Assembly (NCBI GenBank): GCA_947571135.1
Contig: CANOWY010000001.1
Coordinates: 3,604-67,603, forward strand
Length of the DNA: 64,000 bases
Direction of reading: 5' to 3'
Origin: an uncultured Mycoplasmatota bacterium
Lineage (GTDB): Bacteria; Bacillota_I; Bacilli_A; RF39; UBA660
The notes under the pieces are model-generated. The model was given only the letters and a program-made list of their open reading frames with translations, was not told where the DNA came from and searched no databases. The translations under genes and the position numbers were made by a program. This document shows positions 9,985 through 17,725 of this stretch, one piece after another (the stretch's first letter is position 1; each line of letters starts with the position of its first letter).

Positions 9985-10899
9985 ATGAAAAACAAAATAC
10001 TCATTTGTATAGTCGTTGTTTTAAGTATTATTACAGTAGCAGTGGTTAGTAAAAATAAAGAAACTAATCACTCTTTTTTTGATAAAGACGACACCATCAA
10101 AATAAAAACAAAAGAAGAGCGCATTGAAGAATTAAAAATAGAAGATTATCTTATAGGAGTTTTAGCCGCCGAAATGCCTGCTTCTTTTGAAATAGAAGCC
10201 TTAAAAGCCCAAGCAGTTGCTTCACGCAGTTATGCTATGTATAAAATTTTACATAATGAAAGCGAAGACTATGACATTTTAACAAATGTAACAAACCAAT
10301 CCTATATTAACAAAGAAGAAATGCAAGAAAAATGGAAAAACAATTATACCACATATTTAAATAAAATCACAAATGCTGTCCGTGATACCGAAAAAGAAGT
10401 TATGTATTATAATAATGAAATAATTGAATCTTTTTACTTTGCTATGAGTAATGGAGCAACAGAAGATGCCAAAGCAGTATTTCAAACTGACTTACCTTAT
10501 ATAAAAGCAACCACATCTTCTTGGGACAATGAAACCCTAAATAATTTTGCCGTTACCACAAATATAGACAAAGACCAATTTTGTAAATCCTTAAAATTAG
10601 AAGAATGTAATGCCATAACCATAGATAATATAAATTACAGTGCAAGTCATCGCATAAACAGTTTAGAAATCAACAATAAAAAATTTAAAGGAACAGAAGT
10701 AAGAAGTTTATTAAATCTTCGTTCTACGGATTTTGATATTGACATTGGCGAAAGTGAAATCATCATTACCACAAAAGGATATGGACACGGCGTAGGCATG
10801 AGTCAGTATGGAGCAAATGGTATGGCAAAAGAAGGATACAACTATAAAGAAATCTTAAGCCACTATTACAACAACATCACAATCAATAAAATGGTATAA
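9985..10899 (+). CDS. spoIID: Stage II sporulation protein D
   Basis: YLIGVLAAEMPASF..EALKAQAVASRSYA, LNLRST, GYGHGVGMSQYGANGMA. Confidence 0.95.
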   Translation: MKNKILICIVVVLSIITVAVVSKNKETNHSFFDKDDTIKIKTKEERIEELKIEDYLIGVLAAEMPASFEIEALKAQAVASRSYAMYKILHNESEDYDILTNVTNQSYINKEEMQEKWKNNYTTYLNKITNAVRDTEKEVMYYNNEIIESFYFAMSNGATEDAKAVFQTDLPYIKATTSSWDNETLNNFAVTTNIDKDQFCKSLKLEECNAITIDNINYSASHRINSLEINNKKFKGTEVRSLLNLRSTDFDIDIGESEIIITTKGYGHGVGMSQYGANGMAKEGYNYKEILSHYYNNITINKMV

Positions 10900-10943: not shown

Positions 10944-11573
10944 ATGACTAAAAGAAAATTGAAAGGAAGCGTAAAACGAGTATTATGTGTTGCAAGTATA
11001 AGTGTAATTTTTATCTCCTTATTTTTTGTAACAAAGAACTTAAAACCAACCAATGAAAGTGATGAAGAATATGTAATGAACTCTATTTTAGATCCCATTA
11101 CTCCTGTTACAAACATAACTGAGACACCAAAGATTACTAGACCTTATACCAGTGACAAAGTACGAATCAGTAATTACTTCTATGAAAAAGATGCAAGTAC
11201 TGAAGAGCAAGAAAAATCATTAATCTATTATGAAAACACATACTTACAAAATAGCGGTGTTGTATATAGTAGTGATGAAGAATTTGACGTCGTTGCCGTT
11301 TATGATGGAACTGTTATAGACATTAAACAAGATGATATTTTAAACAATATTGTTTATGTATCTCATAATAGTAGTCTTACCACTATATATTATGGACTTA
11401 AAGACATAAATGTAAAAATTAATGATTCTATAAATCAAAATACAGTTTTAGGCAAAAGTGACAAAAACAAATTTTCAAACAATGCAAATTCAATGTTATT
11501 CGAAGTCAATTATGATGGCAAAGTATTAAACCCTGAAAGTTTTTATGTCATGGATATAAATGAATTAAATTAA
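10944..11573 (+). CDS. spoIIQ: SpoIIQ-like protein with degenerate M23 domain
   Basis: N-terminal TM, M23 fold lacking Zn ligands, lies between spoIID and spoIIID, sigma-F-like promoter. Confidence 0.8.
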   Translation: MTKRKLKGSVKRVLCVASISVIFISLFFVTKNLKPTNESDEEYVMNSILDPITPVTNITETPKITRPYTSDKVRISNYFYEKDASTEEQEKSLIYYENTYLQNSGVVYSSDEEFDVVAVYDGTVIDIKQDDILNNIVYVSHNSSLTTIYYGLKDINVKINDSINQNTVLGKSDKNKFSNNANSMLFEVNYDGKVLNPESFYVMDINELN

Positions 11574-11625: not shown

Positions 11626-11883
11626 ATGAATAAAGATTTACTTACAAGAGTAAGAAAAGAAGCACTATATATAGTTCAAAGTAAAAAAACACTAAGAGAA
11701 GTGGCAAAAGTATTCGGAATAAGCAAAAGTACCATACATAAGGATATGAAAGAAAGATTAAAAAAAATTTCTCCTGAATTATTTAGACAAGTAAGGAATG
11801 TTTTAGAAGAACATTTAGAAATTCGTCATATTAAAGGGGGAGAAACAACAAAACAAAAATATTTAAAAAAACAAGTGAGTTGA
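11626..11883 (+). CDS. spoIIID: Sporulation transcription regulator SpoIIID
   Basis: TLREVAKVFGISKSTIHKDM.ERL, RHIKGGETTKQKY. Confidence 0.95.
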   Translation: MNKDLLTRVRKEALYIVQSKKTLREVAKVFGISKSTIHKDMKERLKKISPELFRQVRNVLEEHLEIRHIKGGETTKQKYLKKQVS

Positions 11884-11887
11884 TAAA

Positions 11888-12487
11888 ATGAAGAAAATGC
11901 ATTATGTTATATACCTATGTGACGATGAACTCTTTTTTTTGGATATAAAAAAAGATAACATAAAAAAGGCCAAATTTAAAAGCATCAAAAAAGATGAACT
12001 AATAAATAGTTCATTATTTATAGATGAATTTAGTAAATTTCTAAAACAAAACCATATTAAAGTATCTTTATTTGGAGATAATATTTGTTTTATAAAAAAT
12101 AAGAATATAAATTTGGTTACTCTAGAAAAATATGAAGAATTATTAAAAGAATATTTCTATAAAATAGAGTATAAAGATTTAGAAGAAATCCTAAAAATTG
12201 ATACGAATACTGCTTATTTAAATATTACAAATCATTATCTAGATTATTATTTTATGAAAAAAAATGAAAAAAGAACATTAAGAATTGACTTAAGTCTTTT
12301 TAATGAACAATTAAATAAAGCATTGCAACATATTTTTTCAACAATATTTAAACCAAAACGATTAATGGTATATGGAAATCTTGAAAACATTTCTAAGATT
12401 GCAGAAAACATAACGAATAATTATAATATAGCCACTACTTTCCCCGAAGTCCATTATCATTATATATTTGAAGAATACAAAAAATAG
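11888..12487 (+). CDS. Hypothetical protein, possibly a highly degenerate Mbl/MreB actin-fold protein
   Basis: 199-aa ORF at the position mbl occupies after spoIIID; motif-spacing similarity only. Confidence 0.45.
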   Translation: MKKMHYVIYLCDDELFFLDIKKDNIKKAKFKSIKKDELINSSLFIDEFSKFLKQNHIKVSLFGDNICFIKNKNINLVTLEKYEELLKEYFYKIEYKDLEEILKIDTNTAYLNITNHYLDYYFMKKNEKRTLRIDLSLFNEQLNKALQHIFSTIFKPKRLMVYGNLENISKIAENITNNYNIATTFPEVHYHYIFEEYKK

Positions 12488-12556
12488 CAATTTTGTATTT
12501 TTTTAATGCAATTTATGTTATAATTGCAAATAGTAAACGTAAGGAAGTGTAGAAGT

Positions 12557-13282
12557 GTGATTAAAATTGTAGTGGTAGAAGATGACAAAAAAGCACAGTT
12601 AGAAATAAAAAATATTTTAAGACAATTAGATATATTTAAAGAGGAAGAAATTAAAATAGAATATTTTACAAAATGTACAAACGCATTAAAAGAAATCATA
12701 GAAGACACAGCGGATCGTAAAATCTATATACTAGATATTGAACTAGAAACGAAAATTAGTGGAATAGACATTGCAAAATTTGTTCGTGAAATCGACTGGG
12801 AAAGTGAAATTATTTTTATTACAAATCATGATAAAATGTTTGAGACAACTTATCGTAACGTGTATAACGTTATGGACTTTATTGAAAAATTTCATGACAT
12901 GGATCACAAATTAAAAAAAGATATGAAACTTATTTTTAAGAAGAATTTTGACAATAAAATGTTTAAATTTAGTAGTAGAAACTTAAACCTTCAAATCTTT
13001 TACCGTTCTATTACACATTTATATAGAGATAAAGAATCTAGAAAGATTATTGTAAATACTGACAAAACAAACTATGCAGTTTATCTAAATGTAATCGACG
13101 CAGTAAATTATTTAGACAGTCGATTTAAAATGGTACATAGAGCATGTATTGTTAACTTAGACAGAGTACAAGTTTTTAATTGGACAAAAGGTTATTTTTT
13201 ATTAGATACAGGAGAAAAAGTACATATGTTATCTAAAAAGTATAAAAAGGAAGTGGAAGAATATTATGAAAGAAATAATTGA
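12557..13282 (+). CDS. agrA: LytTR-family response regulator, AgrA-like
   Basis: VVEDD, ILDIEL (phospho-Asp), IIFIT, C-terminal LytTR (VHRACIVNL); probable GTG start at 12557. Confidence 0.88.
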   Translation: MIKIVVVEDDKKAQLEIKNILRQLDIFKEEEIKIEYFTKCTNALKEIIEDTADRKIYILDIELETKISGIDIAKFVREIDWESEIIFITNHDKMFETTYRNVYNVMDFIEKFHDMDHKLKKDMKLIFKKNFDNKMFKFSSRNLNLQIFYRSITHLYRDKESRKIIVNTDKTNYAVYLNVIDAVNYLDSRFKMVHRACIVNLDRVQVFNWTKGYFLLDTGEKVHMLSKKYKKEVEEYYERNN

Positions 13283-14537
13283 TGTATTGATTCCAGTACT
13301 TGTATCATTTTCATGTATATTTTTTTGTGATTTATGTTATGCAAAATTAAACAATACAAAATTAATTATAAATAAAAAAAATATTCTGATTATAGTGCTA
13401 ACATCAATTTTAGTATTATGTAATAATTTGTATACTAACGACGAAATTAAAACAGTTTTTTCTTTTGCTGTAATCTGCTATAACTTTAAATTGATTTATA
13501 AAAAAGATATTAAAAATATTATTATCAGTTATATAATAATTTTTCTAATATTGATTTTATTAGAAATATTATTAACTACTGGTCTATCTGAATTAAAAAT
13601 TTTAAATAGCAATAATGGCGCAATGTTAATAACTTATTTAAAATTATGTTTATCTATTTGTATAGGATTAATTGAATATATAATTTTTTCCGTAAAACCT
13701 ATGAAAAGGTTATTGCAAAAATCGTTAAAATATTTGATAACAAATTCTAGTGTTACTAACATTTCTTATTTAATGTATTTAACAACAGCAATATTAGGAA
13801 TGTTAAGTGTTAAAAATTTTTCAAGTAGTAATGAAATACACTTTTTAATTTGTTTAGTTATCATATTTATAATTTTATTTGCCTTTGTATTTAAATCTAA
13901 AACTACTGAGATAGCATTAAAAGATTCTAATAAACGATTAATTGATTATAACGATAAATATGGGAAATTTTTAGATGAATATAAAATTTATAAACATAAT
14001 ATTAAAAACAAATTATATGCTATAAAATCCTATGGAAATAAAAAAGTAAATGCTTTAATAGATGATTTACTAGAAGAAGAAACAAACTTTAGCATTAAAA
14101 ACAACAATTTGTATAATGTTCCAAAAGGAATTAAAGGTATAGTAGCAGAGAAGTTATACAATTCGAATTTAAATGTAATTGTGGACAATAAAATAAAAAA
14201 TGACCCTTTCAGTAAACTGCCTCCTAAAGTATTTAATAGTATTTCGGAATGTATAGGTATTGCGCTAGATAATGCGATTGAAGCAAGTGAAGTAACAGAT
14301 AATCCAATCATATTAATGGATTTATTTGAAGATGAAGAGAATATATTTATTAAAATAGGAAATAATTTTTGCAATAGTATAGATATAGATGAATTAGGTT
14401 CTATCTATTATTCAACTAAAAATCGGGGTAGTGGACTAGGTTTATTTTCTATCATGCGTAATCATTTAGTAAAGGAAAAAATAGATATTATTAATGATTT
14501 TTACTATATAAAATTACAAATAAAAAAAGCACGCTAA
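13266..14537 (+). CDS. agrC: AgrC-like membrane sensor histidine kinase
   Basis: Polytopic N-terminus, H-box YKHNIKNKL, ALDNAIEA, STKNRGSGLGL. Confidence 0.88.
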   Translation: MKEIIDVLIPVLVSFSCIFFCDLCYAKLNNTKLIINKKNILIIVLTSILVLCNNLYTNDEIKTVFSFAVICYNFKLIYKKDIKNIIISYIIIFLILILLEILLTTGLSELKILNSNNGAMLITYLKLCLSICIGLIEYIIFSVKPMKRLLQKSLKYLITNSSVTNISYLMYLTTAILGMLSVKNFSSSNEIHFLICLVIIFIILFAFVFKSKTTEIALKDSNKRLIDYNDKYGKFLDEYKIYKHNIKNKLYAIKSYGNKKVNALIDDLLEEETNFSIKNNNLYNVPKGIKGIVAEKLYNSNLNVIVDNKIKNDPFSKLPPKVFNSISECIGIALDNAIEASEVTDNPIILMDLFEDEENIFIKIGNNFCNSIDIDELGSIYYSTKNRGSGLGLFSIMRNHLVKEKIDIINDFYYIKLQIKKAR

Positions 14538-14555
14538 TTATACGGCGTGTTTTTA
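14523..14555. terminator. Bidirectional terminator between agrC and agrD
   Basis: AAAAAGCACGC-loop-GCGTGTTTTT between convergent genes. Confidence 0.75.
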
Positions 14556-14557
14556 TA

Positions 14558-14677
14558 TTAAAGCATTTCTTCAGGACAATCAGTTTCATCCCAGTATCCT
14601 AAAAGAGTAAATGTTGAAACACCATTGTTCATTACTTTTGCTAAAGCAGAAAGTACATTTGCAAAGATTGTAGACAT
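14558..14677 (-). CDS. agrD: AgrD-like autoinducing peptide precursor, 39 aa: MSTIFANVLSALAKVMNNGVSTFTLLGYWDETDCPEEML
   Basis: Not in the ORF track. Strong RBS GGAAAGGAGGG, directly downstream of agrB, amphipathic leader plus acidic DExxxP tail. Confidence 0.85.
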   Translation of the reverse strand: MSTIFANVLSALAKVMNNGVSTFTLLGYWDETDCPEEML

Positions 14678-14732
14678 CGTATATTCCCTCCTTTCCATTT
14701 GTTTAAATCTATATAAATAATTTAAACCAAAC

Positions 14733-15341: not shown

Positions 15342-15502
15342 CCACCTTTGTCAGGATATCATTTTTATATTACTTATTTTCAGAAAAAAAGGCTAACAAA
15401 AAAGTTTTAGGTCTAAAAAGAAACTTTCTAAATATACAAAAAATATCTAGAAAAAAGGGACGTGATTTTTAATGGTTAAGACAAAAATTTTCCTATGCGA
15501 AC

Positions 15503-16386: not shown

Positions 16387-16498
16387 TTAAAAAAGTGCTT
16401 AAGACTAAATTTAAGCCTTTTTTATTTGCAAATCTTCTTGTATTTTAAGGAAAATGTAAGTAAACTATGATGGTGAAGTTTTAAAGGAGGTGTGTTAC

Positions 16499-17725
16499 AT
16501 GAAAAAATATTATTTAGGAGAACTGCCTGGAAGGAATGGACAAAGAGATAAAATTTATTATAGTTGTAATCTAAATGAATTTTTTGCAATAAAAAAAGAT
16601 GGAGAAGAAAGAAAGTTAAGCAAGAAACAAACAAGATTTTTATATAAAAAATACCATATTAAATGTGACTTACTTAATATAATTCATTCCACAAAAACAA
16701 AAGTCGTCCTATTATACTTAATTGGTATTTTAATATTGTATCGCTTATTATCAAATTTAGAATCTTATAGTGAGAAATATGGCAATCTATTAATTGAAGA
16801 TATACCAAAATTAGAAAAAGAATATTCTTTTGATGAAAAAATTCTAAAAGAAGAAAGAAATCTTCAGTTTTTAATCAATATGTGTAAAAAATATATAGAT
16901 AGAAATAATAATTACACGGAAGAACAAAAAGAATATCTAAAACTTATATGGAGCAAATACTTAACAGATGAAGGAGAACTCTTTGAACGAGAAGCCATAT
17001 TAGAAATGCTAAATAAGATAACGAGTGTTCAAATAGAATACAAGCCTTATGAAAATAATTCCGTAACAGGTAGATATATAGAGGAAGATAACACCATTAT
17101 TTTATATGAGTCTTATGCTACAAACGCTACTTTAGTACACGAAACCATACATTGTACAATAGGGGATGAATTGCAAAAGAAATATCTTGATTTAGAAGAA
17201 GGATATTGTGGAGCCTTATGTGGAAAATATTGCGATGAATTTACTTATAGAGAAGAAAATGAATATCTTTTGTTAATAAGTGAAATAATAGGAAAAGAAA
17301 AATTAAAGTCATGTATTATCAACGGAAAAGAAGACGAGTTAATAAAAGAAATAGCCGATAAGACTTTTACTGAAAAAAACGAGATAAGAAATTTAATAGT
17401 AAAAACCTACAAATATAAAGCGATTCCGTTAGGAAAAGAAAATTTCTTAAAAAGAACCACCTTATTTAAAGAAATTAAAAAAGATTTAGCGAGTCTTGCC
17501 ATAAAAGCAGATGAAAGCAATGCCAAAAATTTTATAGTCTTAAATGCCTATTATGACAAATATACTTTAGAAACCTCTTTTTTAGAAGAACGATACCATT
17601 ACACGATAAAAGAAGAAATAGAAGGCATTCCAGAATACATCACGATTTATGAAGAAAACAAATACGATTTTGACGATTTATTCGAAGAAGACTATAGATT
17701 GCAAAAAAGAAAAACAAATGAGTAG
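16499..17725 (+). CDS. Membrane-anchored orphan protein with zincin motif
   Basis: AAGGAGG RBS; one TM; GRY...NTIILY...LVHETIH...LEEG. Confidence 0.6.
   Translation: MKKYYLGELPGRNGQRDKIYYSCNLNEFFAIKKDGEERKLSKKQTRFLYKKYHIKCDLLNIIHSTKTKVVLLYLIGILILYRLLSNLESYSEKYGNLLIEDIPKLEKEYSFDEKILKEERNLQFLINMCKKYIDRNNNYTEEQKEYLKLIWSKYLTDEGELFEREAILEMLNKITSVQIEYKPYENNSVTGRYIEEDNTIILYESYATNATLVHETIHCTIGDELQKKYLDLEEGYCGALCGKYCDEFTYREENEYLLLISEIIGKEKLKSCIINGKEDELIKEIADKTFTEKNEIRNLIVKTYKYKAIPLGKENFLKRTTLFKEIKKDLASLAIKADESNAKNFIVLNAYYDKYTLETSFLEERYHYTIKEEIEGIPEYITIYEENKYDFDDLFEEDYRLQKRKTNE

Follow-up and report, generated by a model that had tools for sequence, protein, structure and literature searches.

Which residue closes the signal ring when an AgrD precursor carries no cysteine at the ring position? 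This question is raised by a 39-codon open reading frame (ORF) next to agrB in the 64-kb stretch of DNA analyzed here (64,000 nucleotides; hereafter the window). To our knowledge, the chemically characterized agr signals are all closed through Cys or, rarely, Ser, and we know of no AgrB that has been shown to use Thr. Published accounts likewise describe AIP rings as closing through Cys and rarely Ser (PMC8251862; PMC11953309), and the searchable literature, in which subscription journals are mostly not covered, yielded no Thr-closed AIP. The original prediction for this locus was a lactone linked through Thr or Ser, with an unusual ring size. Based on comparison with relatives, we favor, with a probability of about 0.68, a Thr-linked macrolactone, T-LLGYW, which would carry 0–4 exocyclic residues and be made by a complete agr module of an uncultured low-GC gut Firmicute. 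Relative to that literature, what is new in this reading is Thr as an AIP ring nucleophile; the six-residue ring is already known (PMC10301443).

Translation of the minus strand at 14558–14677 from an ATG to a TAA gave MSTIFANVLSALAKVMNNGVSTFTLLGYWDETDCPEEML, confirming the predicted 39-residue ORF with the core STFTLLGYW and the tail DETDCPEEML. The ORF starts 55 nt past the agrB stop on the same strand, and an AGGAGG-type site equivalent to its ribosome-binding site (Table 1) was present in 26/26 genus loci. A longer frame of 46 aa, opening at an ATG at 14698, also appears in the ORF listing; we rejected it as the true agrD, since its ATG directly precedes the ribosome-binding site and runs into it, and relatives lack the extension. 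An ORF of 39 codons is unremarkable in AT-rich DNA, but we rejected a chance origin as well, because a 39-aa ORF (once 40 aa) recurs 23–61 nt past the agrB stop in all of the same-genus loci recovered (25/25). The exact peptide occurs, without any name, on 8 public contigs in a public protein collection, and a word-based protein search queried with the 46-aa frame found 39 further variants in metagenomes. A Pfam scan of the 39-aa peptide, AgrD model included, gave no match, and the NCBIfam AgrD model TIGR04223 aligned with the tail part only and below threshold (11.8 bits vs. a cut-off of 19; E = 0.21). Column entropies revealed the three-part layout of an AgrD, namely a hydrophobic leader, a variable core and an acidic follower with a conserved Pro, while the ring position, where an AgrD carries Cys (rarely Ser), is occupied by Thr24. 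We conclude that the 39-codon ORF is a genuine agr-type peptide precursor gene.

The agr module around this gene is complete, with agrA and agrC on one side and a convergent agrD and agrB on the other (Table 1). AgrB matched PF04647 with 114.2 bits (gathering cut-off, 23); its gene is single copy in the genome (1.45 Mb, 62 contigs, 92.6% complete), and homologues were found in 25 of the 30 other genomes of the genus and also in sister genera. His79 and Cys86 of AgrB, in the spacing H-x6-C, were invariant in 34/34 aligned relatives. Judged by motif and spacing rather than by direct alignment, they probably correspond to H77/C84 of Staphylococcus aureus AgrB, which we take to be its catalytic residues. 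The true agrB start may be an ATG four codons downstream of the ORF start, which would give the opening MK(S/N/E).FV common to relatives. For AgrC and AgrA, scores against the NCBIfam equivalog models were far below cut-off, indicating that these proteins are family-level relatives and not staphylococcal orthologues.

Table 1. Coordinates in the window of agrD and its parts, the other agr genes, neighboring signals and upstream genes.
Feature	Position	Strand	Basis
agrD, AIP precursor, 39 codons, TAA stop at 14558–14560	14558–14677	-	Sequence, relatives, profile alignment
AgrD residues 1–16 (MSTIFANVLSALAKVM), hydrophobic/amphipathic N-terminal leader	14630–14677	-	Read from sequence
AgrD residues 17–23 (NNGVSTF), near-invariant pre-ring block	14609–14629	-	Entropy ≤0.3 bits per column
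Thr24 codon ACT, predicted ring nucleophile, at the ring Cys position of relatives	14606–14608	-	Substitutions and alignment
Predicted six-residue ring T24-L-L-G-Y-W29	14591–14608	-	Variability, alignment, ring variants
C-terminal follower D30-ETDCPEEML, which AgrB is predicted to remove, holding Cys34-Pro35	14561–14590	-	Conservation, TIGR04223 partial match, alignment
Ribosome-binding site GGAGGG, 8 nt 5' of the agrD ATG	14686–14691	-	Read from sequence
agrB, membrane peptidase/cyclase, 202 aa	14733–15341	-	PF04647, E = 5.8e-33
agrC-like sensor histidine kinase, 423 aa, membrane, convergent with agrBD	13266–14537	+	HATPase_c_5; weak AgrC match
agrA-like response regulator, receiver and LytTR	12524–13282	+	Domain matches
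Probable bidirectional terminator between agrC and agrD	14522–14554	.	A-run, CACGC (14530–14534), 10-nt loop, GCGTG (14545–14549), T-run
TTTAGACCTAAAA box (TTTAGAC(H)(W)AAAA), about 64 nt 5' of the agrB ORF start	15405–15417	-	Conserved position
SpoIID, upstream of agrA	9985–10899		
M23 peptidase, upstream of agrA	10944–11573		
SpoIIID, upstream of agrA	11626–11883		

Per-column entropies were calculated for a genus set of 59 unique peptides. The leader was moderately conserved, and by analogy with AgrD biology as summarized in PMC8251862 it presumably serves in membrane targeting. Columns 17–24 (NNGVSTFT) and the tail (DE..CP.E.L) were near-invariant, with columns 17–23, 31, 34, 35, and 37 almost fixed; the NNGVSTF block likely holds the N-terminal processing site plus any exocyclic tail. 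In between, residues 25–28 were hypervariable, with 53 distinct ring 6-mers among the 59 peptides and entropies of 2.5–3.1 bits at columns 25, 26, and 28. Column 29 was aromatic (W in 51, F in 6, and Y in 1 of the peptides), and residue 29 is the predicted C-terminal acyl donor.

Counting back from Asp30, Leu25 stands at five residues and Thr24 at six, and the sole Cys of the peptide is Cys34 in the acidic C-terminal tail; the absence of Cys five residues before the tail had been read correctly in the original prediction. Column 24 of the genus set held T in 55, S in 3, and C in 1 of the peptides, so that a nucleophile was kept in 59/59; the congeners with Ser are L013, L021, and L022. At 26 genus loci the codon was ACT (16), ACA (5), ACG (1), TCA (3), or TGT (1), a variety that points to selection on the amino acid and not on the DNA alone. 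Conservation by itself does not single out Thr24, since its neighbors in the block, S21, T22, and F23, show ~97% conservation each within the genus; the case for it as the ring residue comes from the substitution pattern together with homology. Of all positions with a hydroxyl or thiol, only position 24 keeps a nucleophile throughout the genus relatives.

With respect to homology, five sister genera carry Cys at column 24 in a gapless alignment with the pattern C-x5-(D/N)EP (SSAC-VVLVV-DEPECP, VGC-VWIFW-NEPKMP, SNAC-VMWYI-DEPECP, SQAC-MFWFV-DEPKMP, and LGC-AWWWF-DEPKAL). A profile built from 13 peptides and run against 1.84 billion cluster representatives returned 256 matches at E ≤ 1e-3. Among the best 150 of these 256, column 24 was C in 121, T in 14, S in 14, and G in 1 (C/T/S in 149/150), and in all of the best 150 five residues separated it from a following (D/E)-E-(P). 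Finally, an hhalign comparison with Clostridium acetobutylicum AgrD, as listed in Table S2 of PMC10301443, matched Thr24 to the ring Cys of that precursor over 26 gapless columns with E = 6.7e-6, pairing KIGEQANGKC-VLVTL-YEPKMPEELL with VMNNGVSTFT-LLGYW-DETDCPEEML. The register T24(+0), D30(+6), E31(+7), P35(+11) is that of CVLVTL-YEPKMP. By alignment, then, Thr24 and the ring Cys are homologous, a place given to Thr24 by about 200 relatives, and the same register predicts a ring of six residues, T24–W29. The proposal of a Ser/Thr-closed ring thus gained support, and the homologue alignment that had been suggested for finding an invariant Ser/Thr picks Thr24: of the three rings put forward, T-LLGYW (6) stands, whereas T-FTLLGYW (8) and S-TFTLLGYW (9) gain no support from the alignment. 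Two further expectations have to be revised: there is nothing unusual about a ring of six residues in this AgrD family, and the Thr form extends beyond this lineage, being present in 14 of the best 150 family representatives.

Two of these representatives carry a Cys just before the column-24 Thr or Ser (P0046, ASTC-T-HWLFF; P0052, ASTC-S-FWGYH); they may form a thiolactone ring of seven residues, or represent an intermediate state. In a relative of the same order, locus L032 (G037:C6) encodes, ~20 nt past agrB, an AgrD-like peptide ending ...GIALGSTKGLKVSALYEKEMPKHMLNK that has no Cys, and no Ser or Thr five or six residues before its YEKEMP follower; a larger ring is possible for this peptide.

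In an AgrB tree, the genus formed one clade with support 100/99. A basal clade was common to Ser types (L021 and L022) and a Thr type (L024), the third Ser type (L013) fell elsewhere, and the single Cys type (L026) was weakly nested among Thr types, a pattern indicating that T, S, and C were exchanged several times. Such repeated exchange is expected if all three can act as nucleophile. A candidate AgrB signature for Thr use, YCW in the genus as against ICL or similar in sister genera, was rejected, since the Cys-type L026 also has YCW. The AgrB homologue of L013 (G010:C33:565-1164) contains one in-frame TGA, which may reflect a pseudogene, a sequencing error, or recoding.

A ring could also be closed further upstream, at Thr22 to span 8 residues or at Ser21 to span 9 as in GBAP, leaving Thr24 as just a conserved ring member. 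Enterococcus faecalis FsrD/GBAP, a nine-residue Ser lactone, shows that rings of this kind exist, and both residues are well kept: S21 and T22 are each present in 58/59 genus peptides, and column 21 is S/T in 93–95% of the best 150 of the 256 family matches. The exceptions, however, are telling, with S21 replaced by Ala in P0035 and T22 by Asn in L021, and in most family members column 22 is Q, V, N, M, or L. Column 21, moreover, is S/T in 95% of the precursors with Cys at column 24 (Cys-type) and in 93% of those with Thr or Ser there (O-type); being equally conserved in precursors that have their own ring Cys, it points to a role other than ring closure. Column 24 alone varies within the set T/S/C, and we consider a larger ring very improbable. 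Like GBAP, the product of the window is predicted to be a lactone AIP from an AgrB-family enzyme; it would differ from GBAP in ring size and nucleophile position, the alignment lending no support to a large ring.

Cys34 itself, as the only Cys of the peptide and one that is invariant in the genus along with Pro35 (Cys34 in 59/59), might be taken for the ring-forming residue, the more so as a tail Cys is enriched in O-type precursors. Behind Cys34, however, lie just five residues, the conserved P-E-E-M-L recognition motif, so that no variable ring would result. Three relatives (L026, L027, and L029) have a Cys in column 24 as well as in the tail, five others, all O-type (P0056, P0058, P0087, P0159, and P0185), lack Cys altogether, and the equivalent residue of C. 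acetobutylicum AgrD is Met. The original prediction had itself raised a ring formed by the tail Cys as the finding that would overturn a Ser/Thr ring; the Cys-free and two-Cys relatives go against it, and we give it a next to negligible chance.

The ring residues vary even between close strains. Across agrB, contigs L039 and L040 hardly differ from the window, and their agrD departs from that of the window in codon 25 (CTT to TAT) and codon 28 (TAC to TTA), i.e., by two base changes in each of these ring codons, plus three synonymous sites. Within one 90%-identity cluster, at least six rings (LLGYW, LLGYF, FLGVW, FLGLW, FFGLW, and YLGLW) follow an identical 24-residue N-terminal part. The AgrD of L002 differs from that of the window by W29F only, and between the same two loci AgrC is 100% identical over residues 1–100, 56% over residues 101–200, and 98% over residues 201–423. 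Hypervariability of the ring together with part of the receptor's sensor is the pherotype pattern of staphylococcal agr, and it also speaks for residue 29 belonging to the mature signal. In the DNA, the variable segment of this mosaic AgrC (13566–13865) lies apart from agrD.

It is also conceivable that no ring is formed, with AgrB trimming the tail only and a linear ...TLLGYW acting as the signal, or that the system has decayed. Hydrolysis of the acyl-enzyme is chemically possible, and no AgrB is known to use Thr. Against this stand the pherotype pattern, in which the AgrC sensor segment and the ring residues diversify together as in working pherotype systems, the four intact agr genes with the catalytic pair of AgrB retained, and the column-24 nucleophile, which is kept in the genus (59/59) and the family (149/150), with Thr retained despite synonymous codon changes. 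We therefore regard a ringless product or a decayed system as quite improbable.

In the model that we favor, the N-terminal helix would insert the AgrD precursor at the membrane, and AgrB, with His79/Cys86 as catalytic residues, would cut between Trp29 and Asp30, freeing DETDCPEEML while Trp29 stays bound to the enzyme as an acyl thioester. Attack on this thioester by the Thr24 side-chain hydroxyl would then give the six-residue macrolactone T-L-L-G-Y-W, and a peptidase would cut inside the NNGVSTF block, leaving 0–4 exocyclic residues, after which the AgrC-like kinase would sense the peptide and signal via the LytTR regulator. Since AgrB keeps His79/Cys86, we expect no change in how the acyl-enzyme thioester forms. 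With Thr in place of the ring Cys, a hydroxyl would be the attacking group, so that the predicted product is an ester and not a thioester. In this scheme the N-terminal cut site, the regulon, and the ester linkage as such are inferred. Counting against this model, the secondary alcohol of Thr is a poorer nucleophile than the thiol of Cys or the hydroxyl of Ser.

The main rival of the Thr-linked lactone is a rearranged, all-amide cyclic hexapeptide: should the leader be cut directly before Thr24, an O-to-N acyl shift would yield cyclo(TLLGYW), the oxygen counterpart of the clostridial cAIPs. In Ruminiclostridium, AIPs that lack an N-terminal extension convert from thiolactones into lactams, and the fate of Ser-closed lactones without such an extension is stated as open in the same source (PMC8251862). 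The residue before the nucleophile fits this rival, being F/Y in 15/28 O-type precursors vs. A/G in 103/121 Cys-type precursors; the aromatic residue at column 23 (Phe23 in the window, 14609–14611) could reflect a different leader-cleavage site or a co-adaptation. The conserved VSTF block, however, fits an exocyclic tail equally well, and the C. acetobutylicum peptide used as the active signal is described as a thiolactone ring (PMC10301443). We consider the all-amide product unlikely, yet worth keeping in view beside the Thr-linked lactone.

The tail Cys raises a separate point, as the favored model assigns no function to this near-invariant residue. At column 34 (14576–14578 in the window), Cys was present in 22/28 O-type vs. 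29/121 Cys-type precursors (odds ratio 11.6, p = 1e-7), as a raw count over representatives P0040–P0189 that ignores kinship; the tree of the 39-aa peptides is poorly resolved, with one independent pair of tail Cys and O-nucleophile on supported branches. A functional coupling between ring closure in Thr/Ser-type AgrD and this follower Cys, five residues past the cut, is a doubtful proposition, and the five Cys-free O-type precursors indicate that it cannot be obligatory. The substrate-borne thiol may, for example, relay or position the Trp29 acyl group for the poorer hydroxyl. If true, this would mean substrate-assisted AgrB catalysis and a family of signals, Thr-lactone or all-amide, spread over uncultured gut Firmicutes.

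Among known systems, S. aureus agrBDCA produces AIP-I, YSTCDFIM, from a precursor with the tail DEVEVPKELTQLHE. The window shares with it the four components, the H-x6-C of AgrB, a hypervariable ring and receptor sensor part, and a tail opening with D-E, with Pro as its sixth residue. S. aureus, by contrast, has a five-residue thiolactone and one four-gene operon, as opposed to a predicted six-residue Thr ring and convergent operons in the window. Ser-closed peptides are described for Staphylococcus intermedius/pseudintermedius (AIP) and for Hungateiclostridium (Clostridium) thermocellum AgrD (PMC8251862; PMC5322536); these likewise have an oxygen nucleophile at the AgrD ring position and keep the catalytic Cys/His of AgrB, but their rings are of five residues and closed through Ser, whereas the window has Thr, a secondary alcohol, and a predicted ring of six. 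In C. acetobutylicum, AgrD (CA_C0079) gives the six-membered thiolactone CVLVTL, of which the synthetic form R6T0 was used as the active signal, and the AgrD group of this species is described as having predicted six-membered rings (PMC10301443). Both precursors have a nucleophile, five residues, and x-E-x-x-x-P-E-E-(L/M)-L, both systems keep agrBD and agrCA in separate transcription units, and both genomes have sporulation genes. The window differs in having Thr in place of the ring Cys, a shorter leader (39 vs. 54 aa for the whole AgrD), a tail with Cys (DETDCP vs. YEPKMP), and an agrBD that converges on agrAC.

Gut-microbiome AIP prediction pipelines assume Cys or Ser only (PMC11953309). 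If AgrB-type enzymes use Thr, about a tenth of the AgrD family of the window would make signals that are missed by current rules and models, among them those of an entire genus of gut Firmicutes with small genomes. Thioesters are far less stable than esters; if the Thr ester is true, signal lifetime and gut cross-talk would differ. The natural T/S/C series at position 24, combined with many rings, also offers a set for studying the nucleophile tolerance of AgrB and the specificity of AgrC.

The probable terminator between agrC and agrD was read by eye. A simple promoter/terminator scan at the locus gave nothing useful, and it did not report this hairpin because the loop exceeds 8 nt; in L039/L040 the stem is kept and the loop differs. 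The TTTAGACCTAAAA box has an exact match at the equivalent place in 8 genus loci, the relatives of the window with the box being L002, L003, L007, L008, L009, L012, and L019, and in relatives the TTTAGAC box precedes a TGnTATGAT-like -10 element. We regard it as a candidate site for LytTR or another regulator; TTTAGAC boxes showed no enrichment in the 64-kb window, and we therefore make no claim of a regulon. L026 has two TTTAGAC half-sites, 21 nt apart.

The ORFs flanking the module (11888–12487, 199 aa; 16490–17725, 411 aa) are without a Pfam match. Genes for SpoIID, an M23 peptidase, and SpoIIID in a genome of 1.45 Mb (Table 1) indicate a small-genome lineage with sporulation genes. As spoIID and spoIIID adjoin the agr genes, the module may gate sporulation, by analogy with the role of agr in clostridia.
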